From a virus (Duplodnaviria; Caudoviricetes), in IMG/VR virus record IMGVR_UViG_3300028840_002990, positions 1 to 60,180 of that record: 60,180 nt of DNA. One strand, 5' to 3'. The notes beneath the pieces are model-generated. The model was not told the origin of the DNA, ran no database searches, and was given only the letters and a program-made list of their open reading frames with translations. Below, piece by piece: positions 1 to 59,255 of the stretch. The translations under genes were made by a program, and so were the position numbers. Numbering within the stretch: position 1 is the first letter of the stretch; each line of letters starts with the position of its first letter.

Positions 1-144
1 TTAGGCCGCCCCTTGCCTGAGAATGGGGCAGAAAGGAAACCATGAACGCAAGTATCAAGGTGATGAATAGTTATGATTATTGCCATTTTGAAGTGGCATT
101 ATCAGCCGAAGATGTCTCTCTTGAAGATGTTGACAATCTTCGCA
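1..144. repeat. Terminal direct repeat, left copy (circular assembly overlap)
   Basis: 1-144 is identical to 60037-60180 and splits a gene; unit genome 60,036 bp. Confidence 0.95.
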
Positions 145-383
145 AAGATGCTCAACGGCTGGTAGATAAGGCAATCAAACAGTACAAGATTGCCAAGCGT
201 GTTGCGGCGATTGATCGAACACCATCGCTAGAATTGGAGCGCAAGGTTCAGGCTATCAAAGAAAATTTTCCACAGTCGGAGTGGTCGCCTGAACAGCAAG
301 CATACGTGAAAGAACTTGAAGATCGGAACTTTCGCGCCTCGCTATCTTACGACTACGAAGATGATTGGGAAGATGATTATTAG
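42..383 (+). CDS. Hypothetical protein, cassette B5 cargo
   Basis: 113 aa ORF with AAGGA RBS; flanked by GTTAGGCCGCC (60036 onward) and GGCGGCCTAAC (383-393). Confidence 0.8.
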   Translation: MNASIKVMNSYDYCHFEVALSAEDVSLEDVDNLRKDAQRLVDKAIKQYKIAKRVAAIDRTPSLELERKVQAIKENFPQSEWSPEQQAYVKELEDRNFRASLSYDYEDDWEDDY

Positions 384-410
384 GCGGCCTAACAAAACGT
401 GCAGACGTAA
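383..410 (+). mobile_element. Truncated attC (left half) of cassette B5
   Basis: GGCGGCCTAAC then AAAACGTGCAG resembles the R''-spacer-L'' of the intact sites; no R' follows. Confidence 0.7.
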
Positions 411-430
411 TTCCGGTGAAAGTAGGTATC

Positions 431-658
431 ATGTTCAAGATTGATGTTTGCAAAGTTTGTGGCGTGAATTGCTTTTGGATTGAATGCGTTGACGGTGACT
501 TAGCAGAAAAAGAAGTTTGCTCACCTGAATGTCTGGCGAAATTATCAGTCTGCCCAACACAGCATGCACTTGACGGTGGTACGGGTTCCGTTTTGCATGG
601 AATTTACACAGAAGAAGGATGGATAACCCCGCAAAGGGGCAGGAAGGAAGGTGAATGA
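431..658 (+). CDS. Small Cys-rich hypothetical protein (degenerate cassette)
   Basis: CKVC and CSPEC motifs; reads through an attC left half at 552-578. Confidence 0.6.
   Translation: MFKIDVCKVCGVNCFWIECVDGDLAEKEVCSPECLAKLSVCPTQHALDGGTGSVLHGIYTEEGWITPQRGRKEGE
552..578 (+). mobile_element. attC left-half remnant
   Basis: GCCCAAC-ACAGC-ATGCAC matches the R''/spacer/L'' pattern of 58422 and 59157. Confidence 0.55.
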
Positions 659-749
659 TGGATGAAATAACCCAAAGAAACAACTTTATGAGGATTTTTG
701 TCTTGCCTGATAATTATCCAGAAGGTTTTTTGTTTGGCGGCGCTCCTTT

Positions 750-772
750 GCCGCTAACGCAAACCGTTAGGT
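750..772 (+). mobile_element. attC right-half remnant
   Basis: CCGCTAACGCAAACCGTTAGGT; CTAACGCAAACCGTTAG is identical to the right end of attC B3 (59228-59244). Confidence 0.75.
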
Positions 773-779
773 GGCTTGT

Positions 780-989
780 ATGTGGAAATTAGTGTCAAAA
801 GAAAAACCGCCGATGGAAGATGTCCTTGTATCAACGCCTAGGCATGGTTATTTTGTGGCATGGTGGGCAGAAGATTGGAAAGAATGGTGTTATCCAGGCA
901 GTCGTGATGTTGTCCAGTTGTCCAATCCACTGGATTGTTACTGGCAAGCAATCACGCCACTTTGCAAAGATAACCCCGTAAAAGAATAG
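780..989 (+). CDS. DUF551-like small phage protein, last cassette cargo
   Basis: WKLVSKEKP..VLV..W..W..YWQAITP pattern; starts right after an R' box. Confidence 0.6.
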   Translation: MWKLVSKEKPPMEDVLVSTPRHGYFVAWWAEDWKEWCYPGSRDVVQLSNPLDCYWQAITPLCKDNPVKE

Positions 990-1418: not shown

Positions 1419-2071
1419 GAAATATGTCATTCGCTCTTACCCCGAATCAATACAAAAGCGGCCTGAAAACTGTTACCCGGCGCAATGGTTGGAAGTTTGC
1501 AAAACCCGGTCAGATATGCCGGGGGGTGAATAAGGTAATGGGTTTCAAGAGGGGCGAAAAGCCTGTTGAATATGGGCAACACGTTTTTCTAGACTCACGC
1601 TTTGAACCGTTGCGAAGGTTGATTGATGTTCCCAAATATGGGGAAATCGAAATGGTGCTTGAAGGTTTTCCCGGTACTCCCCCGGAAGAATTTGTAGAAA
1701 TGTACTGTAAGCACAACAAGGTTACACCTGAAACCGAAGTAAATAGAATTGAATTTCGCCGCCTTTTGAACATGGGAGAAATCCCCCCAACCCCGCCTCC
1801 CTTCAAGTGCCCGATTTGCAAGGCAGATATTGAAATTACAGAAATTGACTCATGGATAGAAACCGGATTTCCGGGAATTTTCAAAGCTGATCATGTTTCT
1901 ATTGATTGTGTAATGTCGCCTAATATTGACTCTCCTGATTGGGAAGATTGGATTGGTTGGCATTGGTCAACGCCTTATGTGGATTGGTATGTGGATTGGT
2001 TGCCTGTTTCTCACCTTGTGGAGCGTTGGGTAAATCGTCATTGGCGGTTTGTTGACAATAAAGCATCTTGA
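1415..2071 (+). CDS. ASCH-like domain protein with C-terminal extension
   Basis: MSFALT..GLKTVTRRNGW..KPG ASCH signature; ATGA overlap with the upstream stop. Confidence 0.7.
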   Translation: MRNMSFALTPNQYKSGLKTVTRRNGWKFAKPGQICRGVNKVMGFKRGEKPVEYGQHVFLDSRFEPLRRLIDVPKYGEIEMVLEGFPGTPPEEFVEMYCKHNKVTPETEVNRIEFRRLLNMGEIPPTPPPFKCPICKADIEITEIDSWIETGFPGIFKADHVSIDCVMSPNIDSPDWEDWIGWHWSTPYVDWYVDWLPVSHLVERWVNRHWRFVDNKAS

Positions 2072-2126
2072 CACATTCTCTGTTTTGTAGTAAGATTCTC
2101 TATATAAACCATCCACAAAATAGGAG
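2068..2126 (+). promoter_or_regulatory. Sigma70-type promoter with conserved AAACCATCCA..TAGGAG leader
   Basis: TTGACA-17-TAAGAT; leader motif at 2106-2126. Confidence 0.75.
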
Positions 2127-2131
2127 ATATT

Positions 2132-2494
2132 ATGACTAAACGCGCAATTGGAATTTTCAACGGAAATAGCCGACATGCTCAATATGCCCGTGAGATCAAT
2201 GCCCAAATTGATTCAGAGCGGGAAATCTTTCTTCTGGATTTTGGCGATGCCCTAAACGAATTGAAATCGCTTGATTCTGGTTGGGAAGAATGGTATGACA
2301 ATCGCCCTGAACAAAAATTACGTGAATTGTATCCTCTTATCGTAGAGCGGGTAAAGATGTTGAAAGCATTACAGGTTGAGGCGGTAGAAGTTGACCTTGA
2401 TCATATCCCCCCCAAGCCCCTGAAAGAAATGACGCCCGAAGAACAAAAAGAATGGTTTGAGAATGTTGAGCCTGTGGAGGTGGGTAATGACTAA
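2132..2494 (+). CDS. Hypothetical early protein
   Basis: 120 aa ORF with strong RBS behind a promoter. Confidence 0.75.
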   Translation: MTKRAIGIFNGNSRHAQYAREINAQIDSEREIFLLDFGDALNELKSLDSGWEEWYDNRPEQKLRELYPLIVERVKMLKALQVEAVEVDLDHIPPKPLKEMTPEEQKEWFENVEPVEVGND

Positions 2495-2990
2495 ACCTCG
2501 TGCATTCCGGCACTACTGCGGGGAGTTGGTTTTTGCTGAGATTTTCATTGCCCCGGACGGTGAAACAATCCCCGCTTTTTTCCCCAAAACAGATCGTGAG
2601 GGGGTAGGGGTTCCAGTTCACAATTGCCCCGGATGCCGAGAAATCCTGAACATTGACTTTTGCGGGAGTCCTTACTTGGTTGAGCCTATGCCTTATGAGG
2701 TTGCGGCGAGAACTGAGAATCACCGTCATTGTTCTAACTGTTGGCAAATGGATTGGGAAATCCTGCCTGCTACAAGCCCGACCGGGGATGACATTGGAAA
2801 TTATTTATTGTGCCGCCATTGCCGGGAGGACACTATTGGATATGTGAGCTATCAATTTGTATTGACTCAACAGTCTGAGGATTATCTAATCTATTCCCGA
2901 AATAGAGAGGCGATTTCCGAGGCGTTGAATATTCCCCTGCCTGAGCCAATCAGGACGATAGGGGAAAATCTAAAAGATTTAGGATTCTAG
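2487..2990 (+). CDS. Cys-rich (Zn-binding) hypothetical protein
   Basis: HYC, CPGC, CSNC and CRHC motifs; GGAGG RBS. Confidence 0.7.
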   Translation: MTKPRAFRHYCGELVFAEIFIAPDGETIPAFFPKTDREGVGVPVHNCPGCREILNIDFCGSPYLVEPMPYEVAARTENHRHCSNCWQMDWEILPATSPTGDDIGNYLLCRHCREDTIGYVSYQFVLTQQSEDYLIYSRNREAISEALNIPLPEPIRTIGENLKDLGF

Positions 2991-4730: not shown

Positions 4731-5152
4731 AACCAGAAACTAAAAAACGTATTGAAAAGATGCTCAAAGATAAACGGTACTGGAATGTCAAAAGGGGGAA
4801 AAGAGAGATTGATTTCAACCGGGTTATTGGAGCAATCAGAGAGATTCAAGAGGGGAAATTTTATGATTCTTATTATTGGCCTCGTGTGGTTTGCTTTTGC
4901 TCTTTGGTCAAATCAAGGCATAGAGACAAGGATTGGCAGGCAATCAGGTTTGGATATAACAAACTTATATTTTGTGATTGGTCTTATGAAATTGATTTGG
5001 TAGGGTGGTTTGAGTTTCTTTACAGGGAGAAAATGGAGTCTAAGTGGGGGGAATGGTTTGACATCCCCTCGAAGCAAGAAATCCAAGATTTAGCTCCGTT
5101 GGTTTTAGATCAAGAATTTGAAGATGGGGCAAAACAACCCGCTTTTCTCTAA
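4727..5152 (+). CDS. Hypothetical protein
   Basis: 141 aa ORF, ATGA overlap. Confidence 0.7.
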   Translation: MKPETKKRIEKMLKDKRYWNVKRGKREIDFNRVIGAIREIQEGKFYDSYYWPRVVCFCSLVKSRHRDKDWQAIRFGYNKLIFCDWSYEIDLVGWFEFLYREKMESKWGEWFDIPSKQEIQDLAPLVLDQEFEDGAKQPAFL

Positions 5153-5173
5153 CCTATTTCTAATGAAACATTC

Positions 5174-5233
5174 TTGACAAATAAGCAGTTATGCACTATC
5201 CTTACGGCATCAAAACCATCCAAAACTTAGGAG
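5174..5233 (+). promoter_or_regulatory. Sigma70-type promoter with conserved leader
   Basis: TTGACA-17-TATCCT; AAACCATCCA 5213-5222; TAGGAG 5228-5233. Confidence 0.7.
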
Positions 5234-5242
5234 AAACAAAAA

Positions 5243-5812
5243 ATGAAAACTCGTTGGATACCAGAAAACTTTACTCAGGAATTACTCCCGGAAGATGCCC
5301 CTAATATCGTGGTTTATCTCTATGAGAACCGAAAAGGGAAACCCTGTGCGGTGGCATACAGAGACAAGAAAAGCAAGCCTCTTTTCAATTATGCCTATGG
5401 GAACGAAAAAGCCCGGTTGAACCATCTGAACCAAGAAAGAAAATGGTGGGCGCGGGATTGGGAGCAGAGACAGGCGTACCAAGCTAAAAAGGCCGCTCCG
5501 AGCGAATTACAACCCGGTGACATCGTTTATGTTACATGGGGATATGATCAAACCAACGTAGACTTTTACGAGGTCTTGAGCCTGACCAAAACCCGCAAGA
5601 GCGCACGAATCAGACAGTTGGAAACCGCAACAAAAGAGTCATCCCCCTTAGCAATGAGTGGATACGCTACCCCGGTTTTAGGGAAGTACGAAGGGAAAGT
5701 GGAAACCCGGCGCACAGTTGGCAAGGATGGGGTACATACAGATGTTAGTGCTTATGGTGGGGCGGCAAAGCGGTGGAACGGTCAACCCGTAGCTTGCTCA
5801 TGGGATTTCTAG
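5243..5812 (+). CDS. Conserved phage early hypothetical protein
   Basis: GDI.Y..WGYDQTNVDFYEV motif, recurrent in phage early genes. Confidence 0.75.
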   Translation: MKTRWIPENFTQELLPEDAPNIVVYLYENRKGKPCAVAYRDKKSKPLFNYAYGNEKARLNHLNQERKWWARDWEQRQAYQAKKAAPSELQPGDIVYVTWGYDQTNVDFYEVLSLTKTRKSARIRQLETATKESSPLAMSGYATPVLGKYEGKVETRRTVGKDGVHTDVSAYGGAAKRWNGQPVACSWDF

Positions 5813-5817
5813 GAGAA

Positions 5818-6084
5818 ATGAAAATGAAAATCTTCGAGAATACCGAATATTATTGTGGGGGGGCGGTTTGGGGGTTGGTTCATAAAGACCAACCCAACCC
5901 GGATGAAGTCAGGGTAAATGTATACGGTAATTGTAATGAGGTTACTGTATTCGCCCGTTACGAATTTGAGAATTGGCTTAGGGAAGATGTTATTCGCCCT
6001 ATTTGTGGGATATGCAAAGAACCGCAAAATTATCAGGCATTTCCCCATCACGTCAAAACTCACTTGGTAAAGGTGCATGGTTAG
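5818..6084 (+). CDS. Hypothetical protein with C2H2-like motif
   Basis: CGIC..HVKTH; TAGGAG RBS. Confidence 0.65.
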   Translation: MKMKIFENTEYYCGGAVWGLVHKDQPNPDEVRVNVYGNCNEVTVFARYEFENWLREDVIRPICGICKEPQNYQAFPHHVKTHLVKVHG

Positions 6085-11680: not shown

Positions 11681-12514
11681 ATGAACAGTTACCTTAGTCT
11701 TGGCGGCGGTTTACAATCCAGTACGATAGTTGAAATGATGGTAGAGGGGGAGTTATCGCCTGTTGATTTAGTTCTTTTTGCGGATACAGGCGATGAACCT
11801 GATTATGTCTATTCACAGGTGGGTTATCTAAAGGGTAGATTGCAATTGATCAATGTTCCTTTGGAGATTGTTTCGATTGGAGACATGATAAAACATTATC
11901 ACGAACCGTGGAGGCGATTTGCCACCCTTCCAGTTTTTACGAAATTAGGGGATAATATTGGCAAAATGCCTCGCCATTGCACGCACGATTATAAAATCAA
12001 TCCAATAGAAAAACGAGTAAGAAGGGGATTGCTTGAATTAGGAAAAGCCACTGAGCAATCAAACGGTGCAATCAGGATAAACAAGGGGGTACAAATTGAA
12101 TGTTGGCTTGGAATTTCCCTAGATGAAGTTCAACGCATGAAAGAAAACAAACACAAGTGGGTGTTCAACCGATGGCCTCTAATAGAAAAAAGAATGACTC
12201 GTTTAGATTGCTCAAACTGGCTTTCTCAAAGGGGTTTGCCAGTTCCTAGAAAGTCCAGTTGTAGAATTTGCCCTTACCACAATGATGATCATTTTAGATG
12301 GATGAAGGATTACAGGCCGGATGATTGGAAACACGTTGTTGAATTTGACGATTTTCTTAGGAATGGAAACGGAAAAATAACAACATCTGCAAGGGGAGAA
12401 TTGTTTTTGCATAAGTCTTGTGTTCCTATGTCGGAAGTAGATTTATCAAACCAACAAGACAAGGGACAGTTAGAAATGTTTGATGTATGCGATGAAGGGT
12501 ATTGTTTTATTTGA
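11681..12514 (+). CDS. PAPS-reductase-like (PP-loop) protein
   Basis: LSLGGGLQSS, FADTGDEP, CT..YKI.PI, GISLDE..R, KSSCRICPY. Confidence 0.82.
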   Translation: MNSYLSLGGGLQSSTIVEMMVEGELSPVDLVLFADTGDEPDYVYSQVGYLKGRLQLINVPLEIVSIGDMIKHYHEPWRRFATLPVFTKLGDNIGKMPRHCTHDYKINPIEKRVRRGLLELGKATEQSNGAIRINKGVQIECWLGISLDEVQRMKENKHKWVFNRWPLIEKRMTRLDCSNWLSQRGLPVPRKSSCRICPYHNDDHFRWMKDYRPDDWKHVVEFDDFLRNGNGKITTSARGELFLHKSCVPMSEVDLSNQQDKGQLEMFDVCDEGYCFI

Positions 12515-12582
12515 TTTGTCCTTGAATCTTTTTCCCAATCTGTTATACTGTAATCATCAAATCGCTAGGACGATTACAGTAT

Positions 12583-13035
12583 ATGGGCAGACCAACCAAA
12601 CTAACAGATGACACAATACAAAAACTTGAAACGACAATTGCCGCCGGGAATTACTATGAGGCGGCTTGTCGCTTTGCTGGAATTAGTTATACCCTTTTCA
12701 GAGAATGGATAAAAGCGGGGCAAGAGGTCAGGGATGGAAAGCGGAAAAGAACACAAAAGAATCTAAAATTTCTTGAGTTTCTTGAGGTAATGGAGAGGGC
12801 AGGGGCTAAAGCTGAAATTAGGATGGTTGCTAACTGGCAGATGCACGTCCCGACTAACTGGCAGGCGGCGCGGGATTTCTTAGAAAGGCGATACCCTGAA
12901 AGGTGGGGAAAGAAAAGCAGAGTAGAAAGTATTGAAAAATATATTGATTTATCTAAACTGTCAGATGATCAACTGGAAAGATTGTCAAGGGGGGAGGATG
13001 TAATTGATGTCCTTACAAACCCAAGTTCAAGCTGA
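12583..13035 (+). CDS. terS: Terminase small subunit
   Basis: MGRPTKLT HTH; WQAA..FLERRYPERWG; immediately upstream of TerL. Confidence 0.85.
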   Translation: MGRPTKLTDDTIQKLETTIAAGNYYEAACRFAGISYTLFREWIKAGQEVRDGKRKRTQKNLKFLEFLEVMERAGAKAEIRMVANWQMHVPTNWQAARDFLERRYPERWGKKSRVESIEKYIDLSKLSDDQLERLSRGEDVIDVLTNPSSS

Positions 13036-14518
13036 ATTAGAACTACGGCGTAGGGCGCAAAGCGGGGAAATAAAAAAATCAAAATACAAAGAATTTCAGG
13101 AAAAATACCGAAATGATTTAGCGGGGTTTGCAAACGATTGTATATCGTGGCGCGAAAAAGAATATCCAACAGATTACCAGTTAGAAGGAATGCGGCGGCT
13201 AGTAAAGTACAAGCGTTTTTCATTGCGTGGCCCTCATGGTTTGGGGAAAACCATGTTTGCCGCAATTGCTGTTTTATGGTTTGCTCTAACTCGTGATGGG
13301 GAAGATTGGAAAATTCCTACACTTGCCTCGGCCTGGAGGCAGGTATCAAAATTTCTTTGGCCTGAAATAAGGAAATGGTCAAGGCGGTTGAAGTGGGGCG
13401 TTATTGGTCGCAACCCGTTCAACGAGAATAGAGAATTGCTTACACTGAGTTTGAAGTTGTCAACTGGTGAAGCCTTTGCAATGGCAAGCAATGATGAGTC
13501 TTTGATTGAGGGGGCACATGCGGACAATATACTATATTTGTTCGATGAATCGAAATCAATACCAGATGCAACATGGGATGCCGCAGAAGGGGCGATGTCT
13601 ACAACCGGGGAGTGCTATTGGTTGGCAGTATCAACGCCCGGTGAACCGATTGGGAGATTCTTTGACATTCATTCTAAAAAGGGCGGGTATGAGGATTGGG
13701 ATGCCCTTAAAGTCACACTAGAAATGGCAATCAAAGCGGGGCGCATAGATAGGGATTGGGCTAAAAATCGGGCAAGGCAATGGGGAAAAGATTCGGCGGT
13801 ATATATCAATCGAGTCAAGGGAGACTTTGCGGAAAGCGATGAGGATAGTGTTATCTCGTTGGCCTGGATTGAACGTTCAAACGAGCGATGGTTAGCAAGG
13901 CAAGAGGCAAACGATTTTGGGGATGTTACAGGCTTGGGGGTGGATGTAGGACGAGGCGGAGACCCGTCTGTTATCTGCCTACAATGTGAAGATGCAATAA
14001 AAGAATTCCGCAAAATACAGGTAAAAAATACAATGCACGTTACCGGATTAGTTATTGGTTTGCTGAAAAACCATCATAAATCAAAGGCAAGTATAGATGT
14101 GATCGGAATAGGGGCGGGAGTCGTTGACAGATGCAGGGAAGTTATAAACGAATTGAGAAACGTAATATTTCCAAACCCGAATGATAGGATTATTGCTTTC
14201 AATGCCGCAGAGAAAACAGACTTAAAAGATAGTTCAGGGGAATTGGGCTTTGTGGATTCTAGGTCGGCTGGATGGTGGAATCTTCGTGAGAAGTTGCAGA
14301 ATGATGAGGTTGATTTACCCCCGGAAGATGAATTGACCGGGGAGTTAGTTTCTCCTAAATGGGTGGTACAATCAGGAGGAAAAATAAAAGTTGAAAGCAA
14401 GAAAGATATAAAGAAACGCTTAGGCCGAAGTACCAACTATGCAGATACGGTCATTCAGGTTTACATGCCTCCCCCCGTTCAAAAAATGGCTGGTGCATTC
14501 GGTAGGAGAAAAAGGTAA
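13007..14518 (+). CDS. terL: Terminase large subunit
   Basis: Walker A GPHGLGKT, Walker B YLFDES, STP, nuclease GVDVGRGGD, RSTNYAD. Confidence 0.93.
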   Translation: MSLQTQVQAELELRRRAQSGEIKKSKYKEFQEKYRNDLAGFANDCISWREKEYPTDYQLEGMRRLVKYKRFSLRGPHGLGKTMFAAIAVLWFALTRDGEDWKIPTLASAWRQVSKFLWPEIRKWSRRLKWGVIGRNPFNENRELLTLSLKLSTGEAFAMASNDESLIEGAHADNILYLFDESKSIPDATWDAAEGAMSTTGECYWLAVSTPGEPIGRFFDIHSKKGGYEDWDALKVTLEMAIKAGRIDRDWAKNRARQWGKDSAVYINRVKGDFAESDEDSVISLAWIERSNERWLARQEANDFGDVTGLGVDVGRGGDPSVICLQCEDAIKEFRKIQVKNTMHVTGLVIGLLKNHHKSKASIDVIGIGAGVVDRCREVINELRNVIFPNPNDRIIAFNAAEKTDLKDSSGELGFVDSRSAGWWNLREKLQNDEVDLPPEDELTGELVSPKWVVQSGGKIKVESKKDIKKRLGRSTNYADTVIQVYMPPPVQKMAGAFGRRKR

Positions 14519-16758
14519 TGACTGAAAAACCCACTCCCCCCCGAAAAGGCACAAGAGCAGATTTGAAATTGAGATTGAATCGGGCAGAACAAACCATACA
14601 GTTTTTGGCGAATTCAACCCTGACCCGCAGAGCCGCTTATGCGGCCTCTCTAGGAAAACAGTTTGACGGTGATCGAGATTTATATGCCGTTTTTGGATAT
14701 AAAATATCCCCTGATTTTCAAGACTTCTTGCTTGCCTATGAGCGCGAAGGGCTCGCAGCTAGAGTCGCAGACGCAAAGCCAAATGCAACATGGAGCAAGC
14801 ACCCAATCCTTTATGTTGGTGGCGAGGCTCCAAGCGAAGAAAATCCGGGGGAACTGCAAAAGAAGTTTGACGAATTTGCTAACGAATACGACCTCTACGC
14901 AAAACTGAAAGAGCTTGATAGAGCCTGCGCGATTAGCCGCTTTGGTTTGATGTTCCTGGGTTTACCCGGCGACCCTAGAGAGCCAGTAGAAAACGTCAGA
15001 GAGGGAGATTTAGCCTTTATCACTGTACACGATGAGGGAGATGGGGAAATAGATGAGGGGAGCATTATTCAAGACACAGAAAACCCCCGCTTTGGCCTGC
15101 CTGAGTATTATTACATCATTGTTAGCGAAACCAATCAGGAAAAGAAACGAGTCCATCATTCCCGCGTAATCCATTACAAGCGAGGCAAGCAAAGAACTGG
15201 GTACGGGCGCGTGTACGGTGTTCCTGATCTGAAAAATATTTTCAACCGATTCTATGATCTTGAAAAAGTGGTAGGCGGTGGGAGCGAGGCATTTTGGTTG
15301 TTAGTGCGAAAAGGTCTTGCATTGATGGCAAGGGATGGAATGAATTTACCCTCAGAGGGAACAGACGCCTATGAAGTTTTAGAGGATGAGGTAGAGGAAT
15401 ACGAGCATCAATTATCCAGAATTATGAAATTGGTCGGCCTGGATATTCAGGAATTGGGAAGCGACCCGGTTTCTAGTCGAGATCAATTCGATGTGTTGAT
15501 TGAATATATTGCAGGGTCAGAGGAAATCCCGCAGAGACTTCTTTTAGGGTCTGAGCGGGGAGAACTGGCAAGTTCACAAGATCAAGCAAATTGGTTTGGT
15601 AACATTGAAGAAAGGCGAAATAACGAGGCCGAGCCTTATATTTTGCGGCCTGTTCTGGATAAGCTGGATGAATTGGGTCTTTTCGATTTACCAGATGAAT
15701 ATAAAGTTTTCTGGCCTCCATTGTTTACGCTGACAGAACCGGAGGAGGTAGAGGTTGCTAGTACGGTTGCACAGACTATTTATACAATCACAGGCGGTAT
15801 GCCTGAGTTGGCTATTCCGCTTGAGGAATTCATGAAACTGCTACCGGGTAAATGGTCATATGCGATGGATAAAGAGCAGATCAAAAAGATTGAGGAAGCA
15901 AAGCGGAAACCGGACGAAGCTAACCAAAAGGAAGATGAAAAAACAAAGGTTGACATTTCTGATTTGCTCTCCAAGTTGCCACAAGGGGAGGAAACAAAAC
16001 AGAATGCCCGGGCAATTATGAGCCGCCTTATCGAGGGGGTAAGCGGGTCAATCAAGGGCGATTTAGTGGAGAACTTCGGGACACTGGACGCTTACCAGAA
16101 TCCTATGGTTTGGCACAATGCAAATGGAACGGGCGAGTATGCAACCATGATTGCATTCATGATACCCGAAGTCATCCGCCAAGAGTTGAAAGCAAAATAT
16201 CCCTGGATACAAGATGACGTGTTAGACGAAATGCACATGACTCTTGTGTACCTGGGTGACATTCGCACATTATCAAGAGCTAGAATTTTCGAGGCGGTTG
16301 CTGAGTTTGCGAGTACGGTACAACCGATCAAAACCACTATGCAGGGACTCGCCCGGTTCGTTTCTGAAATGGAAAAAGACCCGATTGTCGCAACTTATGA
16401 CAGTCCACAAAATGAAATCGTTATGCTGCGGGAACAGTTAGCGGCTATACTTCGCACGATGGGAATCCCATACCATGATAATCATGGGTTTATCCCCCAT
16501 ACGACATTTGCATACATCCCTAAAAACGAGTCTATGCCTGATGACTCTTTTGAGCGGGTAGAGATCAATTTCAATATGGTTTCGGTGGTGATTGGTCAAG
16601 AGCAATATGATTTCGATTTAGGTAGATACCCTGACAATTTGCCTGAGATCATGCCTCCTCCCCCTCCACAAAAGGTACAACATCCAATAGAGGATTCAGG
16701 TCTTGACCCATACAATGAGCGGGGTAATTTTGACCCGGCAAATGAGGAGACTCATTGA
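14518..16758 (+). CDS. Portal protein (DUF1073-type) fused to a C-terminal 2H phosphoesterase
   Basis: Follows TerL; IPQRLLLGSERGELASSQD; HMTL and PHTTF 2H motifs. Confidence 0.85.
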   Translation: MTEKPTPPRKGTRADLKLRLNRAEQTIQFLANSTLTRRAAYAASLGKQFDGDRDLYAVFGYKISPDFQDFLLAYEREGLAARVADAKPNATWSKHPILYVGGEAPSEENPGELQKKFDEFANEYDLYAKLKELDRACAISRFGLMFLGLPGDPREPVENVREGDLAFITVHDEGDGEIDEGSIIQDTENPRFGLPEYYYIIVSETNQEKKRVHHSRVIHYKRGKQRTGYGRVYGVPDLKNIFNRFYDLEKVVGGGSEAFWLLVRKGLALMARDGMNLPSEGTDAYEVLEDEVEEYEHQLSRIMKLVGLDIQELGSDPVSSRDQFDVLIEYIAGSEEIPQRLLLGSERGELASSQDQANWFGNIEERRNNEAEPYILRPVLDKLDELGLFDLPDEYKVFWPPLFTLTEPEEVEVASTVAQTIYTITGGMPELAIPLEEFMKLLPGKWSYAMDKEQIKKIEEAKRKPDEANQKEDEKTKVDISDLLSKLPQGEETKQNARAIMSRLIEGVSGSIKGDLVENFGTLDAYQNPMVWHNANGTGEYATMIAFMIPEVIRQELKAKYPWIQDDVLDEMHMTLVYLGDIRTLSRARIFEAVAEFASTVQPIKTTMQGLARFVSEMEKDPIVATYDSPQNEIVMLREQLAAILRTMGIPYHDNHGFIPHTTFAYIPKNESMPDDSFERVEINFNMVSVVIGQEQYDFDLGRYPDNLPEIMPPPPPQKVQHPIEDSGLDPYNERGNFDPANEETH

Positions 16759-17210: not shown

Positions 17211-19820
17211 ATGACTTTCCCTACCCCCCTGCCTGAATTGCCCGTTCTCCTCCCTCCCCGTCCATACCGTGACGGGGGAGAGCCTTTCTTTGCTTTCACA
17301 GACAAAGAGACTCAGGAATTCTTGGAAGACAATTCAGACATCCAAAATAGTATTGACCTATGGAATAGAAAATCCCGCCTGGTTGGATACCTTGAGGCTG
17401 AGTCAATTGATGTTATTCAATTCCACTATGGCCCCGGCCCCCATCCCGGTACTGGTACGAGTCAAGATGTACATGGAGGGGATGGGGTAAAGGCTGAACC
17501 AAGAGGAAAGTATAAACATCCAATTCTAAAAGATGATGAACCTTTGAGTATTGCAAAAATTTGGGAGTCTTTTCAATGGCTTGAAAAGCAAAGACAGGAG
17601 GAGTTAGAAGCGGAATTGGAAAGGGAGCAAGGCATTGATAAAGAGGCAAGAGAGGAACGAATAGAGGAATTATCTGATGAATATGCAAAAGTTTTAGCTG
17701 ATGAATATGAATCATTTGCATTTGAGCATTGGAATTCTCTGACCGAAGAACAACAAGAGGCAATCAGGGAATATCAAAATGGGGAGTATGGTGATATAAA
17801 CGAATATCTTAGGGAGGGTGTCTATTTAGAAAATGAACATTATGTTGATCTTATTGCTGATTCTGCTACTCCATCCCCTCAAGATATAATGCTTTATAGG
17901 GGCATGGAAACCATGAGGTATGAAGATTTAGAGGCGGGGGACATTATTACAGATGACGGTTTTTTTTCATCCTCTGTTCACCAATCGGTTGCTTATTCTT
18001 TCATAAAGAATGCAGATAAAGGGGAACAAGAGGTTGCTTTTATTATTTTGGTAGATGAAGGGTTTCCGATTATCCCGGCTGATAGTAAAGACTATCCTAG
18101 TGAGGATGAAGTTATACTATTACCCGGTACAAGTTTTCATGTAGTGGATGTTTTCGAGGATGAATTTTTCTACAGTGACGATATTGATAAAGTTGTTTAT
18201 TTGAAAGCATTGACTCCAAGCGAAGCCCAAAACGGACTTGATAAGGGTTGGGAACTTTTACCAGAACCAAAACTAATACCAAAACCAGAACCAACCCCTG
18301 ATTTGCAACCTGCTTTGTTTTCAAAAGAACCAATCCCGATTCCAATTCTGGAAAGATGGGATGAAAATTTTTATTCCGAGGGCATAAGGGTTTACAGGCG
18401 GCAAAAGGTTTCCCAACATCATTATGGCCCCGGCCCCCATCCCGGTACTGGTACGAGTCAAGATGTGCATGGAGGGGATGGGGAGGAAAGAACTTACTCA
18501 GAAGTTGAAAAATATATGTATGAGGGTTTTGCAAAGAGGCATTGGGAAACCCTTACCCCTAGACAAAAACAGGTGATCAAAGCCTACGGTGATGATTACT
18601 ATGAATATTATAATGGGTATGCAAGAGGCCAAATTACAGCCACAGATTACAGTGAACAGGTTTCTGAAATAAATTCTGCTAGTATGCCTGCTCCATACGA
18701 TATGAAGGTGTACCGGGGAACTGAAAGTTTCCGATTCAACGATCTTGAAAGTGGTGATATATTTCATGATGCTGGATTTTTCTCTACTTCAATCCATAAA
18801 GATATTGCTGCAGATTTTGCCGATGTTCCATCAAAGGAAAAAGATCAAGTTGTTTTTGAAGTTCTTATTCCACATGCATTTCCTATTATCCCCTACGATA
18901 GCACAGACTTTGAACCAGAGGATGAAATCTTTTTTCCCGCTGGCACTTATTTTGAGGTCAAATCATCTGAGGATGACGTTTATTTTTCTTATGCTGGCAA
19001 TGTGAAACTTATTCAACTTGAGGCTATATACCCATCACAAGCAAGGGCAAAACAGAATGTAGAGAAAAGTAAAGTGCCTGAAAAATTGATTCCTGTTCCA
19101 ATTCTTGAGCGGTGGGCAACCGATGATTTTGATGGGGTTGGGATAACGATTATAAAGAAAGAAAAGAAAGAAAAGAAAATTTCCCAACATGCCCGGAAAC
19201 TTGTAGAGGTTTATTTCGATTTTCCAACAGGGGTTTATAGGTACATTGTTTCAGGCCGAAAAGTACCTGACCATCGTTTGCATTTAGGGAATGCCAGAGT
19301 CGCAAAGTCTCAACAAGGGGCAATGAAAGAGCTTACTCGGCAATTGGTAAACGGCGAGATCAATCAAGAGATTTGGTATAAGGAAATGCGACAAATGATG
19401 AAAGATCAATACCGGGCGGCTTGGCTTGCCAGTATTGGAGGCAGGGAGAACTATACCCGCTCCGAGATTTCAAAATTTGGTTGGGCTGTACGCCCTCAAT
19501 ACCGCTGGCTTGACAATTTTCTTGCTGAGTTGCAATCAGGAAAACAACCCTTGAATGCTTTTGCTATCATGCGATCTGGCATGTACGCGAGGGCGGGGAA
19601 TGCGATCTACCAGAACAATAGACTTAGGATAGCAATCGAAGCAGGGATGAAAGAGGCGAGGAGAATTCTAGGGGTTACGGAACATCACTGTCATGATACG
19701 TTGACCAAACCTGGGTGTATTGAATTAGCGGCTGAGGGATGGATTCCTATAATGCAAGCTGTACCAATCGGGGATGCAAGTTGTTATTCAATGTGTTTGT
19801 GTAGATGGGAGTTTAGATAA
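17211..19820 (+). CDS. Minor head (MuF-like) protein with two VIP2-type ADP-ribosyltransferase domains
   Basis: Two R-S-ExE sets (LYRG/FFSSS/SEDEV and VYRG/FFSTS/PEDEI); C-terminal HC..C..C...C.C; lies after the portal. Confidence 0.8.
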   Translation: MTFPTPLPELPVLLPPRPYRDGGEPFFAFTDKETQEFLEDNSDIQNSIDLWNRKSRLVGYLEAESIDVIQFHYGPGPHPGTGTSQDVHGGDGVKAEPRGKYKHPILKDDEPLSIAKIWESFQWLEKQRQEELEAELEREQGIDKEAREERIEELSDEYAKVLADEYESFAFEHWNSLTEEQQEAIREYQNGEYGDINEYLREGVYLENEHYVDLIADSATPSPQDIMLYRGMETMRYEDLEAGDIITDDGFFSSSVHQSVAYSFIKNADKGEQEVAFIILVDEGFPIIPADSKDYPSEDEVILLPGTSFHVVDVFEDEFFYSDDIDKVVYLKALTPSEAQNGLDKGWELLPEPKLIPKPEPTPDLQPALFSKEPIPIPILERWDENFYSEGIRVYRRQKVSQHHYGPGPHPGTGTSQDVHGGDGEERTYSEVEKYMYEGFAKRHWETLTPRQKQVIKAYGDDYYEYYNGYARGQITATDYSEQVSEINSASMPAPYDMKVYRGTESFRFNDLESGDIFHDAGFFSTSIHKDIAADFADVPSKEKDQVVFEVLIPHAFPIIPYDSTDFEPEDEIFFPAGTYFEVKSSEDDVYFSYAGNVKLIQLEAIYPSQARAKQNVEKSKVPEKLIPVPILERWATDDFDGVGITIIKKEKKEKKISQHARKLVEVYFDFPTGVYRYIVSGRKVPDHRLHLGNARVAKSQQGAMKELTRQLVNGEINQEIWYKEMRQMMKDQYRAAWLASIGGRENYTRSEISKFGWAVRPQYRWLDNFLAELQSGKQPLNAFAIMRSGMYARAGNAIYQNNRLRIAIEAGMKEARRILGVTEHHCHDTLTKPGCIELAAEGWIPIMQAVPIGDASCYSMCLCRWEFR
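17424..18483 (+). repeat. Two 64 bp near-identical copies encoding HYGPGPHPGTGTSQDVHGGDG
   Basis: 17424-17487 and 18420-18483; third diverged copy at 23895-23951. Confidence 0.9.
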
Positions 19821-20094: not shown

Positions 20095-20123
20095 TTGACA
20101 CATTTACAAATGTACATTACAAT
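20095..20123 (+). promoter_or_regulatory. Sigma70-type promoter driving cassette array A
   Basis: TTGACA-17-TACAAT; overlaps the palindrome AATGTACATT (20109-20118). Confidence 0.8.
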
Positions 20124-20153: not shown

Positions 20154-20360
20154 ATGGGTGATTTCAGACCAAAATTAAATTCTCATGAAGATATTTTCTT
20201 AGCAATTCAAGAGGAATTGAATAAGAATGCTGTTACCTCATTGAATCTTACAACTATTGTAAAGATTTGTGGAGAACGGGCTTTTTTATCTCTTTTCCCT
20301 GACAGGAAAAATGAGTTGTTGGGTTTACAGCGTCAACGATATGAGAAAATTGATTTTTAA
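20154..20360 (+). CDS. Small hypothetical protein ending at attI-like site A
   Basis: TAGGAG RBS; stop codon overlaps the AATGTACATT palindrome. Confidence 0.7.
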   Translation: MGDFRPKLNSHEDIFLAIQEELNKNAVTSLNLTTIVKICGERAFLSLFPDRKNELLGLQRQRYEKIDF

Positions 20361-20389
20361 TGTACATTCCGCTCAAACACTAGTTAGCC
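20359..20389 (+). mobile_element. attI-like site A
   Basis: AATGTACATTCCGCTCAAACACTAG|TTAGCC; 25 of 27 bases through GTT match 58249-58275; heads the array. Confidence 0.72.
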
Positions 20390-20410
20390 GCCACTTGAAG
20401 GAATAGTCAC

Positions 20411-20635
20411 ATGGCATATAAAAAAGGTAATCACTGTAACAATAATTGCGCCCACTTTTTCGGCGAAGATGTAACTATCTATAATCCGTATCATGGCGGC
20501 AATCCTGGCTCAACAGATTATGAGCAATATCAAATGTATTGTTGCGCCGAAGTTGCCCATGGTGAGCGTATCTATAAAGTCCGTTATGCTTGCCCTATCT
20601 ATCAGGCAGCTAACAAAGCATGGAGCGGACGGTAG
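20411..20635 (+). CDS. Cys-rich hypothetical protein, cassette A1 cargo
   Basis: AAGGA RBS; reads into the attC (ANKAWSGR). Confidence 0.75.
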   Translation: MAYKKGNHCNNNCAHFFGEDVTIYNPYHGGNPGSTDYEQYQMYCCAEVAHGERIYKVRYACPIYQAANKAWSGR

Positions 20636-20693
20636 AAATGTTACCTGAAATCCTGACAGCTTTATCGTCCGCCGCTCATGCAGGCCGTTAGGC
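20608..20693 (+). mobile_element. attC site A1 (86 bp)
   Basis: AGCTAAC..GCATGGAGCGG / CCGCTCATGC (one extrahelical base)..GTTAGGC. Confidence 0.9.
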
Positions 20694-20708
20694 GCTATCT
20701 TGCAAAGG

Positions 20709-21032
20709 ATGAAAATGATTACAGAAAAAGAACTCGATGCAATCGCTTGGCGTGCTGGTCGTGGTTGTCATTTTGAAAAAACGTTTGTTGGCCCAAATGG
20801 GTACACACAGAAAGTGTGCGAAGAAGATGTGCCTGCGCTTATCAGAGAATTGCGAATGGTGAGAGAATTTGTCAAGGCAAATATTGAGCTTGCAAATCTC
20901 AACACTACTTTGATTGAGTTTGTGTCAGAAGTCAATTACTCTCCATACAATGATAGTGATTGTCTTTCGCTTTTAGAAAGTTTGCGTTCACGAGCTGCGA
21001 CAATCCTGAGAGAGATTGAAGCGCCTAAGTGA
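20709..21032 (+). CDS. Hypothetical protein, cassette A2 cargo
   Basis: Begins after GTTAGGCGCT and ends over the remnant AGCGCCTAAG (21020-21029). Confidence 0.75.
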   Translation: MKMITEKELDAIAWRAGRGCHFEKTFVGPNGYTQKVCEEDVPALIRELRMVREFVKANIELANLNTTLIEFVSEVNYSPYNDSDCLSLLESLRSRAATILREIEAPK

Positions 21033-23063: not shown

Positions 23064-24257
23064 GTGCATTTTATGTCAAATATTACTCCCCATTCTGTAC
23101 AAAACGCTCTACTCTCTTGGAGAGAGGAATCCATAGGCGACAAGTCTTATTTTGTCGTCAACGGAGTTCCCCTGGTTGAGGGTGTTCTAAATGGTCGGCT
23201 GGTTGAGGCAAAAGAGTTCGGTGCATTCGTCAAAGATTGGAACGGTGTACCTGTTGTTATGCGTCATCCAAAATCAAACGGGGGTTCGGCTCGTGTAATT
23301 TCTCCTGATGTCCCGGTGGTGGGACGTTTCTACAATGCAAAATTGGACGGGACTCGCCTCGTGGGTGAGTTCTGGCTTGACCCGGATATGTTGCAAGAGC
23401 AGGATGGTCAAGAGCTTATTTCCATGATCAAGGCCTCAAAGCCCGTAGAGATTTCTACGGGCTATTATGCTGAGTCCGTCCCTACAACTGGTCAGTGGAA
23501 TGGGAAAGATTATGGACTTGTTGACCAAAACTTACACCCTGACCATATTGCCCTTTTACCGGACGAAATCGGGGCTTGCTCGGTTGCCGATGGTTGCGGA
23601 TTGAATCGCAATCAGGAGGACGAAATGAAAGAGTTTGTTTGTCCCTATGCCGATTTGCTTCAACCCCAAACTGCTAAGAATGTTCAAAAAATACTTGGTG
23701 ATTTGGCAAATGATTTGGATGTTTCGATCCAGAACGTTGAAGGCCTTACAGGGGCGGCGGCTGATATGTGGGAGGAAGTATACAAAAATGCTTTGGAGCA
23801 ATACGAAGGGGATAAGGAACGGGCTTCAAAGGTGGCATGGGCGGCAATCAAAAAGAAGTACAAAAAAGAGGGTGATGATTGGGTGTTGAAAAATCATTAT
23901 GGCCCCGGCCCTCATGAGTCTGGAAGTTCTCAAGATGTACATGGTGGGGAGGGTGGAAAATCCCCTAGAAAATATAATGCTCATGAAAAAGCGGTACTTG
24001 AACGCGCAACCTATTTGGGGAAAAAAGCAGGGAAAGCGGTTAGGAGCAAAAGAAGGGATGAATATTTATCTTATGCAAGGTCTTTGGATTCTTTGCTTGA
24101 ATCTGTTCCTAAAGATTTTAGGAACGATGTTAGAAAAGCCTATGAAGAAAAATATAAATCTTATACCAACAATTTGAAAAACACAGAGTCGAAATTTGAC
24201 ATTCCGCAACATGAACTTGAAGGGCTTGCGAGTCTTGTTGCGTTTGTAGCAGAATGA
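23064..24257 (+). CDS. Prohead protease (DUF2213-type) with ChaB domain and HYGPGPH tag
   Basis: WNGVPVV.RHP, VEISTGY, PDHIALLP..GACS.ADGCG; ChaB-like W..VYK.A..QY..A.KVAWAAIKKKY. Confidence 0.82.
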   Translation: MHFMSNITPHSVQNALLSWREESIGDKSYFVVNGVPLVEGVLNGRLVEAKEFGAFVKDWNGVPVVMRHPKSNGGSARVISPDVPVVGRFYNAKLDGTRLVGEFWLDPDMLQEQDGQELISMIKASKPVEISTGYYAESVPTTGQWNGKDYGLVDQNLHPDHIALLPDEIGACSVADGCGLNRNQEDEMKEFVCPYADLLQPQTAKNVQKILGDLANDLDVSIQNVEGLTGAAADMWEEVYKNALEQYEGDKERASKVAWAAIKKKYKKEGDDWVLKNHYGPGPHESGSSQDVHGGEGGKSPRKYNAHEKAVLERATYLGKKAGKAVRSKRRDEYLSYARSLDSLLESVPKDFRNDVRKAYEEKYKSYTNNLKNTESKFDIPQHELEGLASLVAFVAE

Positions 24258-49790: not shown

Positions 49791-50051
49791 CTAAAATCCC
49801 CCGCCGAAAACAAACCACAGGAAAAAGAAAAGCAGGGTTGCGGCTATTCCTGAAAAGAAACCAATGAAAAACCAAGAGGCTTTTATTATTCTCTGTCCTT
49901 TTGCATATGCCCTAGATAGCTCATGAAATTTTTCTTTATAGGATTCTATTTCAGCATATTCCTCACTGGTTACAAATTCTGTATTGTTGCACACTATACA
50001 CTTAGTTACCTTGTCAGAAACTTTTGTGTTACATTGTCCACAGTATTTCAT
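49791..50051 (-). CDS. Zn-ribbon protein with C-terminal TM
   Basis: CGQC..CIVC; GGAGG RBS. Confidence 0.65.
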   Translation of the reverse strand: MKYCGQCNTKVSDKVTKCIVCNNTEFVTSEEYAEIESYKEKFHELSRAYAKGQRIIKASWFFIGFFSGIAATLLFFFLWFVFGGGF

Positions 50052-50581
50052 AGTTCCTCCATACAATATTCACAATCGCAACATATTAGATTTACATGCC
50101 CCTTTGCCCGGTCAATATCTGTCAGATTTAGTTCTCTTGCTCTTTCCAAAGTGATTGATTTCCGAGGCCCAAATCCGGGGATAGGCCATTGCATGACAAG
50201 AGCCTCGTTATCATGCCTGACCCAAACTACAAAACTGAGCGCATGAATCGCGTGTTTGTTCAAATAGTCAATTTGATGTTTCCCATGCTTGGTCATAATT
50301 CCCCAAGTGAGGTTTTCGTCAACGCTGGAAGTCTTGACCTCCGCGCGAATTGCGACTCCATCTGTCCTGTGCCCCATAATATCCCCGGTTGCCTTTTTTT
50401 TGAAAAAGCCTCTTACCTTGCCCCCACTGGAAATACTAACTACAGAAAACGGGGTAGGGATTTCTTCGGGCATACATACGCCAATTTCAGCGAGTTTTAT
50501 CCTCGCTATTTCTTCCCCTTTGTTTCCGCGTCTTTTATTGCTCATATTTATTGCCGATTTCAGACCAATATTTGTTAGCAT
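50048..50581 (-). CDS. RecU-like Holliday junction resolvase (PD-(D/E)xK)
   Basis: RG..GE, PTP, K.TGD..G, EVKT, HQ..YL. Confidence 0.72.
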   Translation of the reverse strand: MLTNIGLKSAINMSNKRRGNKGEEIARIKLAEIGVCMPEEIPTPFSVVSISSGGKVRGFFKKKATGDIMGHRTDGVAIRAEVKTSSVDENLTWGIMTKHGKHQIDYLNKHAIHALSFVVWVRHDNEALVMQWPIPGFGPRKSITLERARELNLTDIDRAKGHVNLICCDCEYCMEEL

Positions 50582-50771: not shown

Positions 50772-51416
50772 TCATTGTTGTTTTTTATTGCCTCTTGCGC
50801 CCTCAAATAAATCTACCGCAAGCGGTTTATTGAGAGGGTTTTTTCTACACTTGCCCTCATGACTGTTTGTTGCGTTGATCGCTCCGCGTTCGGTCTGATA
50901 TTGGTCAGACCAACCACAACCGAATCGGCATTCGGTTTTATGTTTGGTCGGTTTGGTCGGTTTCGGTGTGCTTTCGGTCTGCTTCGGTTTTGTTTCGCTT
51001 TTCAACGAAAAAAGCGATTTCCCAGCGACAACCGCCGCAAATACAATAGACAGATCGGGCAAAGACGCCCATGCTACAGCCACAGTAATTGCGACCCATG
51101 ACTCCAAAATTGTTTCGGACAATTCAATCCATAATGCAGGCGCAACCGCAACGGGCGATAGGCACAAAGCTAATGCCATTGCCCCATAACCTAAATACCT
51201 GCGCCTCGGAGATTGGATAGCTGATACCCTAGACGACCCAAAGGCTAGAGATAGGGAGGGGATAATACCCGCGACTGCGCCCATGTACCATCGCTGAAAA
51301 TATATATCCCCCGCAACACTAAATAATACAGCTTGCACAATCCCCGCCACGATTGGGAGATAGTCGCCATTTAGTTTTATTTTCATCTTTTTTCCATTCT
51401 CTAGTTGTCTAGTCAA
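50772..51416 (-). CDS. Polytopic membrane protein with C-terminal Zn finger
   Basis: Four TM segments; CRFGC..H...C. Confidence 0.7.
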   Translation of the reverse strand: MTRQLENGKKMKIKLNGDYLPIVAGIVQAVLFSVAGDIYFQRWYMGAVAGIIPSLSLAFGSSRVSAIQSPRRRYLGYGAMALALCLSPVAVAPALWIELSETILESWVAITVAVAWASLPDLSIVFAAVVAGKSLFSLKSETKPKQTESTPKPTKPTKHKTECRFGCGWSDQYQTERGAINATNSHEGKCRKNPLNKPLAVDLFEGARGNKKQQ

Positions 51417-56053: not shown

Positions 56054-56249
56054 ATCTGCTCCTATACTTGCAAAATTTGAAGCAGGAACAGGAAAGCAAA
56101 GAGACTTGGCAATATTGATTAGTTATATGCAGGAACTTGATTTCCTTTATGATGAAATGATTACCAATCCCCCGGCTGTTATTAGTCAACCTCTGAGTGA
56201 AGAAGATGCAAATAAAATAGCCGATTTTATGACAAGGAAAAAAGAATGA
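55977..56249 (+). CDS. Hypothetical protein (possible helicase accessory)
   Basis: Between initiator and DnaB; ATGA overlap with dnaB. Confidence 0.6.
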   Translation: MTKNMPRLPKPNPEYYEIKLQKIKNKSAPILAKFEAGTGKQRDLAILISYMQELDFLYDEMITNPPAVISQPLSEEDANKIADFMTRKKE

Positions 56250-57590: not shown

Positions 57591-57619
57591 TTGACAAGCA
57601 ACGCAAGCCATGATAAGAT
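57591..57619 (+). promoter_or_regulatory. Sigma70-type promoter upstream of cassette array B
   Basis: TTGACA-17-TAAGAT; upstream TAATGAAAC(G/A)TTCTTGACAA shared with 5161-5180. Confidence 0.7.
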
Positions 57620-57636
57620 GGATGCAGATAGGAGAA

Positions 57637-58266: not shown

Positions 58267-58279
58267 ACACTAGTTGGGC
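58249..58279 (+). mobile_element. attI-like site B
   Basis: AATGTACATTCCGCATAAACACTAG|TTGGGC; near-identical to 20359-20385. Confidence 0.72.
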
Positions 58280-58307
58280 GGACTCGTCCAAACGAAAGCG
58301 AGTATAA

Positions 58308-58532
58308 ATGATAACAACTCAAGATAAATGTGTATCAGTAGATGATGCGCTAAAAAAGCTAAATTTTATGAAGGCAAGCGGACGGCGTATGTTTTTTTTG
58401 AGTGAACTCAATCCAGACGCTGCCCAACAACGCGTGCAGCCGACTCGTTGCACTGTGCCGAATTGTCACGCTGGCATGGTTCCAGATGGCACATCAGCGC
58501 GTAAAACATGTCCAGTGTGCAACGGCGGCTAA
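58308..58532 (+). CDS. Cassette B1 cargo; second half encoded by the attC
   Basis: 74 aa; CTVPNC..CPVC lies within the hairpin. Confidence 0.6.
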   Translation: MITTQDKCVSVDDALKKLNFMKASGRRMFFLSELNPDAAQQRVQPTRCTVPNCHAGMVPDGTSARKTCPVCNGG

Positions 58533-58548: not shown

Positions 58549-58577
58549 GGCTTCTTTGCCAGAGAAAGAAGGAAACA

Positions 58578-59246: not shown

Positions 59247-59255
59247 GGCTAAAAC

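Follow-up and report, generated by a model that had tools for sequence, protein, structure and literature searches.

The window analysed here, 60,180 nucleotides (nt) long, corresponds to the complete IMG/VR virus record IMGVR_UViG_3300028840_002990 and represents the genome of a tailed phage. It carries two arrays of integron-type gene cassettes, referred to as arrays A and B, and at the head of each lies one copy of a conserved 26-nt sequence, which is the subject of this study and which we consider as a candidate attI-type recombination site. A strong sigma-70-like promoter and a resident gene precede each array, with the end of the resident gene touching or overlapping the site. Downstream of each copy follow cassettes made of a short open reading frame (ORF) and an imperfect inverted repeat, in which a box of the form ..AAC comes first and a box of the form GTT.. 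last (Table 1).

Searching the window for the 27-mer AATGTACATTCCGCnnAAACACTAGTT returned two matches, at 20359-20385 and 58249-58275, both on the plus strand, and no further copy with up to three mismatches allowed. None turned up in 100 shuffles that preserved dinucleotide composition, and chance does not account for the two copies. They agree at 25 of 27 bases, the sole differences falling at the two n positions (TC vs AT), and diverge directly past GTT, where one continues with AGCCGCC and the other with GGGCGGA. The upstream flanks are unrelated except for an A/T run, and the conserved unit comprises 26 nt (sites A and B in Table 1). When both array regions were compared by blastn with all loci fetched in this work, only the site matched (79-100% identity over 26-71 nt), the longer matches of lower identity also taking in the 3′-terminal part of the small gene that precedes site A. 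A preliminary description of this DNA had reported the 25-of-27 agreement of the copies at 20359 and 58249 and had placed the end of identity right after GTT, where the first cassette starts; the window search with its shuffles bears out the former and the alignment of both copies the latter. The range it gave, 20359-20389, does hold the site, its end coordinate taking in four bases of the first cassette.

Of the two cassettes in array A, the first (20384-20687) is intact and the second decayed; for the latter no intact attC was found, and a scan for half-site motifs gave no more motifs. Array B comprises four intact cassettes (58274-60036), after which decayed half-sites run across the terminal repeat of the record into positions 1-766. 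For the detection of attC sites we used two half-site motifs derived from the arrays; these replaced a first finder based on core complementarity and fold energy, which was far too permissive and missed true sites. The distinct attC sites number 36 and measure 59-133 nt. They show inverse R′′ (..AAC) and R′ (GTT..) cores, L′′/L′ pairing and a bottom-strand hairpin with unpaired spacer and bulges. In minimum-energy DNA folds of attC bottom strands, R′ paired with R′′ in four of six cases, with an asymmetric internal loop and a stem bulged by single bases, and only the inner stems were kept in the remaining two. Array B, with four intact attCs, further decayed halves and no integrase anywhere in the genome, falls under the definition of a cluster of attC sites lacking an integrase (CALIN; at least two serial attCs with no integrase nearby); array A, with its one intact attC, is on its own too short for that class.

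The site in other phages and the crossover point

An exact-pattern scan of viral contigs added three carriers (L003, L014 and L015), and the same kind of scan of metagenome contigs gave 12 stretches, of which 11 had ATGTA, bases outside the pattern, in front and one was a chance match. Nine of 14 heads lay directly behind a small gene encoding 65-72 amino acids (aa), or behind a broken copy of it. Searching by the small protein, independently of any DNA pattern, retrieved eight viral loci, seven of which had a site of equal length directly after the gene. Across these seven, ATGT(A/G)CAT, C10, G12 and TAG|TT (vertical bar, crossover) were invariant and the middle was variable. In the eighth (G005) the small gene was present, and neither the site nor attC motifs were found anywhere in it. 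When the first nine viral records were mapped, attC half-site motifs followed 11 of 11 sites on the same strand, and G005, which lacks the site, had none. This phage (L036, L042) is a complete 25-kilobase (kb) relative with the small gene and an Xer-like recombinase and without site or attC motif, and constitutes a natural negative control.

A degenerate-pattern scan yielded 74 viral stretches, most of them unrelated, chance fits to the 15-base pattern. L016, L017, L025, L069 and 49 further fits to this pattern were set aside as chance or unrelated hits; L064/L081, L106 and L112, which pass the junction test described below with one mismatch and have no attC motifs, are doubtful. With all loci pooled, we count 25 distinct array heads and 14 site variants of the fixed-length form ATGTACAT-N13-TAG|TT, and attC half-motifs around these heads number 39+40 within 1.5 kb downstream versus 4+5 upstream. 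The invariant parts of the site are ATGTACAT, placed exactly 13 nt from TAG|TT, and TAG|TT itself. All real copies sit on phage-like contigs, mostly just behind the small phage gene.

Individual carriers differ in how site, gene and cassettes are combined. One complete 27.8-kb phage (G002; L015/L035) has two arrays, as in the window, one behind the small gene with a variant site and the other behind another gene with the canonical site and a 14-nt remnant of the small gene's 3′ end. The second array of G420 begins with a one-base variant, GTGTACAT..., and L058, which the half-site motifs missed, has the site and a single cassette with a divergent attC. Upstream of the site, the small gene is broken by an in-frame TAG in G422 (L132 2396-2606), by a frameshift in L027 and by an internal deletion in L029, the site being intact in each. 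One cassette is common to two arrays (81% identity over 773 nt), at differing ranks and with different neighbours.

If the bases right of G|TT stem from the cassette's own attC, they must complement the R′′ box at the cassette's far end. A junction-complementing box ending in AAC was present 140-550 nt downstream in 16 of 16 copies. For quantification, a non-redundant set of 14 heads was used, from which the duplicate contigs L021 and L022 had been removed, and the box was sought within the next 600 nt. The ten nt starting at GTT equalled the reverse complement of the first attC R′′ box exactly in nine heads, with one mismatch in four and with two in one, the latter being site B of the window (8 of 10 bases). 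Among 180 deliberately mismatched pairings, five were exact and 23 had one mismatch, i.e. 28/180 as compared to 13/14 for the true heads.

The same border emerges from an independent source. Contigs from two compost-metagenome runs of another study match the window solely at 20383-20619, with 21 differences; the likeness begins exactly at the crossover G, and what lies upstream is the end of another attC, not the site. This marks cassette A1 as a mobile unit bordered on its left by the predicted crossover. An apparent joint of 20385 to 20607 in runs X1 and X2 was considered as a deletion variant and discarded, as it arises from array B of the same phage, which matches both at the site and at the shared attC; uncovered parts of the stretch in X2-X4 carry no meaning.

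The sequence thus stands where an array begins, and the first cassette is attached to it between the G and the TT of a GTT-type core. From its sequence context, we interpret the 26-nt element as the attI-type primary recombination site of a phage-carried integron lineage, with a probability of roughly three in four. A fossil junction could give a similar picture: one ancient insertion at a secondary GTT, inherited and spread by homologous exchange of arrays, and devoid of present function. IntI is reported to insert cassettes outside att sites (preprint 10.1101/2022.09.11.507474), and the distal cassettes of the window are decayed. Yet between phages the 26 nt are 92-100% identical, as compared to 67-86% (DNA) for the adjoining small gene, and the cassette side is unalignable, which argues for selection on the site itself. 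As likeness, moreover, breaks at the same phosphodiester bond in all heads, we consider a fossil the least probable of the explanations weighed here.

The most conserved part of the site, ATGTACAT, could alternatively be no more than a regulatory element, namely an operator for the small protein or another factor, with the cassettes abutting it through a single ancestral landing at a nearby GTT. In the window, the palindrome recurs in the promoter spacer of the small gene (20110), with a one-mismatch copy at 20122, and it is also found near a promoter in L014; the frequent position of the small gene or its remnant directly before the site fits as well. The AlphaFold2 model of the small protein (mean predicted local distance difference test score, pLDDT, 76.8) has an extended N-terminus followed by three helices, and a ribbon-helix-helix protein is a guess that this model permits. 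Against an operator, neither a DNA-binding family in general nor a ribbon-helix-helix family or fold was detectable in the 68-aa protein, no Pfam family was assigned (44 family members scanned), searches of PHROG and of the PDB by sequence and profile gave nothing significant, and Foldseek returned 0 hits. A second ATGTACA near the small gene was absent from the other loci, and the window shows no enrichment of ATGTACAT at one mismatch (25 copies observed, 22.6 expected). A purely regulatory site leaves 25 different first cassettes at the same G|TT unexplained, and we deem it very unlikely as the whole explanation; operator and recombination-site roles are not mutually exclusive. For an attI-type site, the invariant ATGTACAT may be an extra integrase-binding site or a site for an accessory protein. 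The small protein itself belongs to a family of at least 532 members, all unnamed, which lie on contigs of up to 42 kb among the 120 listed; it had no match in phage records.

Integrases, and where the site comes from

In six-frame searches of the window at E of 1 or better, there was no match to PF00589 (tyrosine recombinase) or TIGR02249 (integron integrase), nor did a profile of the phage IntI clade introduced below match it. We searched PF00589 in 19 viral records, 18 of them site-bearing, and found it above the cut-off in six: five (G001, G002, G004, G005 and G420) encode short Xer-like enzymes, and the sixth is G422. Three of six near-complete carriers, like the window, encode no tyrosine recombinase; for these phages, the integrase must therefore act in trans. 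As no cognate intI adjoins the sites in the window, we class them as attI-type sites belonging to integrase-less arrays and do not call them the attI of a complete integron.

Among the 18 site-bearing viral records, one has such a gene near the site. This contig, G422 (44,297 nt), comes from a tailed phage, as its terminase, portal, protease and major head genes show, and in it an IntI-family gene for a 345-aa protein lies 713 nt upstream of ATGTACATTCCGCTCATACACTAG|TT, a site one base away from site A of the window and followed by five cassettes. The protein aligns to positions 2-314 of the 315 in TIGR02249 (258 bits, E 1.3e-76) and by BLASTP to IntI1 of plasmid R100 (35% over 320 aa, E 1e-64), the latter alignment running through the IntI-specific segment W.WFW.F...DP.SG..RHH.Y. 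The proposal that the sequence is attI-like is hence supported: the site heads every array of the window, the crossover is G|TT, and in one phage an IntI-family gene lies upstream of a one-base variant. The 345-aa protein of G422 has eight cluster-level relatives (P0122-P0129; 56-66% identity) on contigs of up to 39 kb, its own cluster reaching 81.6 kb; proteins named integron integrase by their sources are at most 37% identical to it. The site was found near none of sixteen other viral IntI-like loci (29-36% identity; 0/16). In G422 (L133 752-905), the start codon of the IntI-family gene follows the end of an attC by 3 nt, as though this gene occupied a cassette position behind an upstream array.

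Given that integrases prefer their cognate attI, and that an enzyme for the window and the three carriers without tyrosine recombinase must come from outside, the host might be its source: the site would copy the attI of a chromosomal integron, the host's IntI would load the cassettes, and the motif would name the host, as the preliminary description had proposed. To find a bacterial counterpart, an 18-base core of the site was scanned against 185,579 one-per-species bacterial and archaeal genomes (596 billion bases). The ten hits are about the chance number and none of them (0/10) continues with TAGTT, in a scan that demanded an exact match to one variant and that a diverged host site would escape. 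Searches for the attC family pattern found it in none of 401 Pseudomonadota genomes (the only phylum sampled) and in none of the 5 genomes behind chance loci. Thus, the proposed search yielded no real bacterial hit and no bacterial intI neighbour, and on viral contigs it recovered the same site at the head of other arrays. With all real copies on phage-like contigs and tied to a phage gene or its remnant, and with the sole linked intI being phage-borne, the claim of host mimicry and of a motif that identifies the host finds no support; we regard this origin as unlikely.

A further candidate is the short Xer-like recombinase of related phages, acting on the site in place of IntI. Genes of this kind, encoding 273-309 aa, occur in G001, G002, G004, G005, L024, L028, G420 and G422, and the G422 copy starts 10 nt past the last attC. 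However, three complete carriers (G000, G006 and G415) lack the gene, G005 has it although site and attC are both missing there, and the position and strand of the gene relative to the arrays vary. Its similarity to IntI1 is negligible, whereas the attCs are of the classical IntI type. Service by the Xer-like enzyme therefore appears even less likely than an exclusively regulatory role. In G422 (L133 4889-5828) the Xer-like gene begins directly behind the array, and in G420 (11912-13480) an Xer-like gene is followed by two attC right-half motifs.

For an attI-type site, the following sequence of events can be proposed. An IntI-family integrase would insert incoming circular cassettes by way of their folded attC into the phage DNA, at the bond between G and T in TAG|TT, so that everything right of the crossover would be exchangeable cargo and everything left of it fixed. 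Transcription of the cassettes would come from the promoter and resident gene upstream (20095 and the 68-aa gene for array A; 57591 and the 218-aa gene for array B). The window phage would offer two docking sites and no integrase, so cassette gain and loss would have to await an integrase supplied in trans. The most likely supplier would be the IntI clade found on the related phage contig G422, a host enzyme being less likely. The sequences themselves establish where the site lies, the exact bond of the crossover, the polarity of the arrays, that the site is conserved among phages and, in one phage, that it is linked to intI; the identity of the acting enzyme, its binding of the site as double-stranded DNA and the role of ATGTACAT are what we infer from this arrangement.

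Several observations weigh against an attI-type site. Concerning the site itself, positions set in the search patterns are invariant by construction in the pattern-based sets, and only the protein-anchored set informs on conservation. The A-rich box left of the crossover (L arm) differs among the 14 site variants and resembles the inverted R arm only moderately (mean of 5.0/9 vs 2.26/9 for random 9-mers, with two positions fixed by construction), and the most conserved part, ATGTACAT, has no testable counterpart. Nor does the full site stand at every array: of the second array of G415 only the right part of the site is left, ...TAAACTCATAG|TT, and what precedes the first array of G422, close behind a promoter, is unrelated sequence. 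As to the enzyme, the lack of a tyrosine recombinase or IntI-clade match in the window counts on this side, as does the finding of an IntI-family gene in only 1 of 18 site-bearing viral records, many of which are fragments. The TIGR02249 score of the G422 protein is 7 bits under the curated cut-off (265), and its gene is co-oriented with the cassettes and two reading frames before the site, which is not the classical divergent intI/attI layout.

A broader scheme can be imagined, which we put forward tentatively and with the odds against it. Uncultured phages might run a communal integron, with the IntI clade residing on few genomes and integrase-free phages keeping one or two ATGTACAT-N13-TAG|TT sites, usually together with a small protein that would bind the palindrome; cassettes would be loaded and shed when such a phage meets an integrase-carrying relative in the same cell.

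Genome context of the arrays

Positions 1-144 of the window equal 60037-60180, and these identical 144-nt ends argue for a circularly closed assembly. A 144-nt direct repeat terminates both the window and G415; it probably arose as an overlap in the assembly of a circular or permuted genome and not as a true terminal repeat of the phage. Apart from the genes listed in Table 1, an 869-aa protein encoded beside the portal gene (17211-19820) carries ADP-ribosyltransferase domains (PF03496, two stretches, E 2e-21). A 382-aa minus-strand protein (51413-52561), considered as a possible recombinase, had no Pfam, PHROG or PDB match and is not assigned as one. An Rfam scan of the window at gathering thresholds gave no match, and neither did the two array regions when run by megablast against 50,697 phage records. 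The large terminase is closest to those of Streptomyces and Actinoplanes phages (best match 45%), and a protein atlas search with the DnaB-type helicase returned weak rows only, Bacillota being the commonest; neither names a host.

Two features of the cassettes were observed in passing. The methyltransferase ORF of cassette B4 crosses its own attC and stops 20 nt into the next cassette, so that the last residues of the enzyme depend on the neighbour. In some cassettes, the leader ATCTTGCA(A/C)A and then GGAG stand directly past the crossover (window 20697-20706; several loci); this combination was seen in 12 distinct contexts, five of them directly behind a junction.

Table 1. Features of the window and of the related contig G422, with their coordinates.
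Record	Feature	Position	Strand	Remarks
Window	Array B continuation over the 144-nt terminal repeat, decayed cassettes	1-766	+	ORF 42-383; left half-sites 387-393 and 552-558; right half-site, G at 766
Window	Large terminase	13004-14518		
Window	Portal	14518-16758		
Window	Sigma-70-like promoter TTGACA-17-TACAAT	20095-20123	+	11/12 consensus matches; upstream of small gene and array A
Window	Small conserved gene, 68 aa	20154-20360	+	Stop codon abuts site A
Window	Site A, ATGTACATTCCGCTCAAACACTAG|TT	20360-20385	+	Crossover between G20383 and T20384
Window	Cassette A1	20384-20687	+	ORF 20411-20635; attC R′′ 20608-20614 to R′ 20687-20693
Window	Cassette A2 remnant	20688-21032	+	ORF 20700-21032; R′′-like remnant near 21020-21029 (by eye)
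Window	Head protease	23064-24257		
Window	Putative Holliday-junction resolvase	50048-50581	-	
Window	Replication initiator	55121-56053		
Window	DnaB-type helicase	56246-57580		
Window	Sigma-70-like promoter	57591-57619	+	10/12, TG extension; upstream of 218-aa gene and array B
Window	Resident 218-aa gene, family unassigned	57610-58266	+	Last five codons and stop inside site B
Window	Site B, ATGTACATTCCGCATAAACACTAG|TT	58250-58275	+	Crossover between G58273 and T58274
Window	Cassette B1	58274-58542	+	ORF 58308-58532; attC 58422-58548
Window	Cassette B2	58543-58852	+	ORF 58578-58778; attC 58773-58858, identical to A1 attC
Window	Cassette B3	58853-59240	+	ORF 58884-59162; attC 59157-59246
Window	Cassette B4, N6/N4 DNA methyltransferase	59241-60036	+	ORF 59256-60056; attC 59912-60042
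G422	attC	752-874		Ends 3 nt before next gene
G422	IntI-family gene, 345 aa	871-1905		Same strand as cassettes
G422	127-aa frame	1993-2376		
G422	Small gene copy	2396-2606		Interrupted by in-frame TAG
G422	Site ATGTACATTCCGCTCATACACTAG|TT	from 2618		One base from site A of the window
G422	Five cassettes	up to 4889		
G422	Xer-like gene	4899-5828		

Comparison with known systems

The closest classical counterpart is attI1 of class 1 integrons, which in plasmid R100 reads ...GCCCTAAAACAAAG|TTAAACATC. It likewise heads an array whose first cassette is attached behind the G of G|TT, and a comparison by eye shows an A-rich box some 7 nt before the crossover in each (GCCCTAAAACAAAG|TT in R100, CCGCATAAACACTAG|TT here). 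There is no further sequence identity, and no divergent intI abuts the site described here. The left element also differs, being an 8-bp palindrome, ATGTACAT, at a fixed 13 nt here and repeats upstream in attI1. The preliminary description had drawn the parallel from a 7-bp box, a 5-bp spacer and GTT; the total length holds, and the parallel is weaker for the 7-bp box, which varies among the family, ATGTACAT and TAG|TT being what is invariant. Integrons with an integrase co-oriented with the cassettes exist, and G422, whose IntI-family gene runs in the direction of the cassettes and has the site beyond its 3′ end, resembles these; it differs from them by the two reading frames between integrase gene and site.

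Integrons have been treated as bacterial devices, and the phage examples published so far are either fragments captured from host integrons or attC clusters without a head. In the present data, no fewer than 25 arrays on phage contigs have a sharply conserved head site, tied to a phage gene and in one case to a phage-borne IntI-family gene. The 26-nt site can be used as a probe for phage cassette arrays in metagenomes, and the IntI of G422 together with its site provides a defined enzyme-site pair for a standard recombination assay. It also opens the question of how integrase-less phages swap accessory genes, such as the orphan methyltransferase of cassette B4. Among the papers listed by literature searches and judged by title and abstract, none dealt with this motif or with a head site specific to phages.

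CALINs of phages and one prophage array with attI at its head have been published before; what sets the present arrays apart is a conserved head site common to them. In the prophage case, an integrase-less array headed by attI lies in a phage genome, according to the pertinent sections of Qi et al. 2023 (PMC9892861), and its head resembles the present one in having a palindrome, then an A-rich run and G|TT. By the same account (PMC9892861), that attI is the host's own, one base away from that of S. oneidensis MR-1, and sits in an inactive prophage beside a host-type integron. The site described here, unlike it, had no bacterial counterpart in the searches made, occurs in complete integrase-free phages and is tied to a phage gene. 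The main-text sections of Qi et al. 2023 (PMC9892861) further report 17 CALINs in phages, in which methyltransferase cassettes were noted, and recombination of five of six attCs from virulent phages with attI1 under IntI1. The arrays of the window share with these virulent-phage CALINs the integrase-less series of attC-bounded cassettes, methyltransferases included; a conserved head site is not described in those main-text sections, whereas here one head site is common to 25 arrays.
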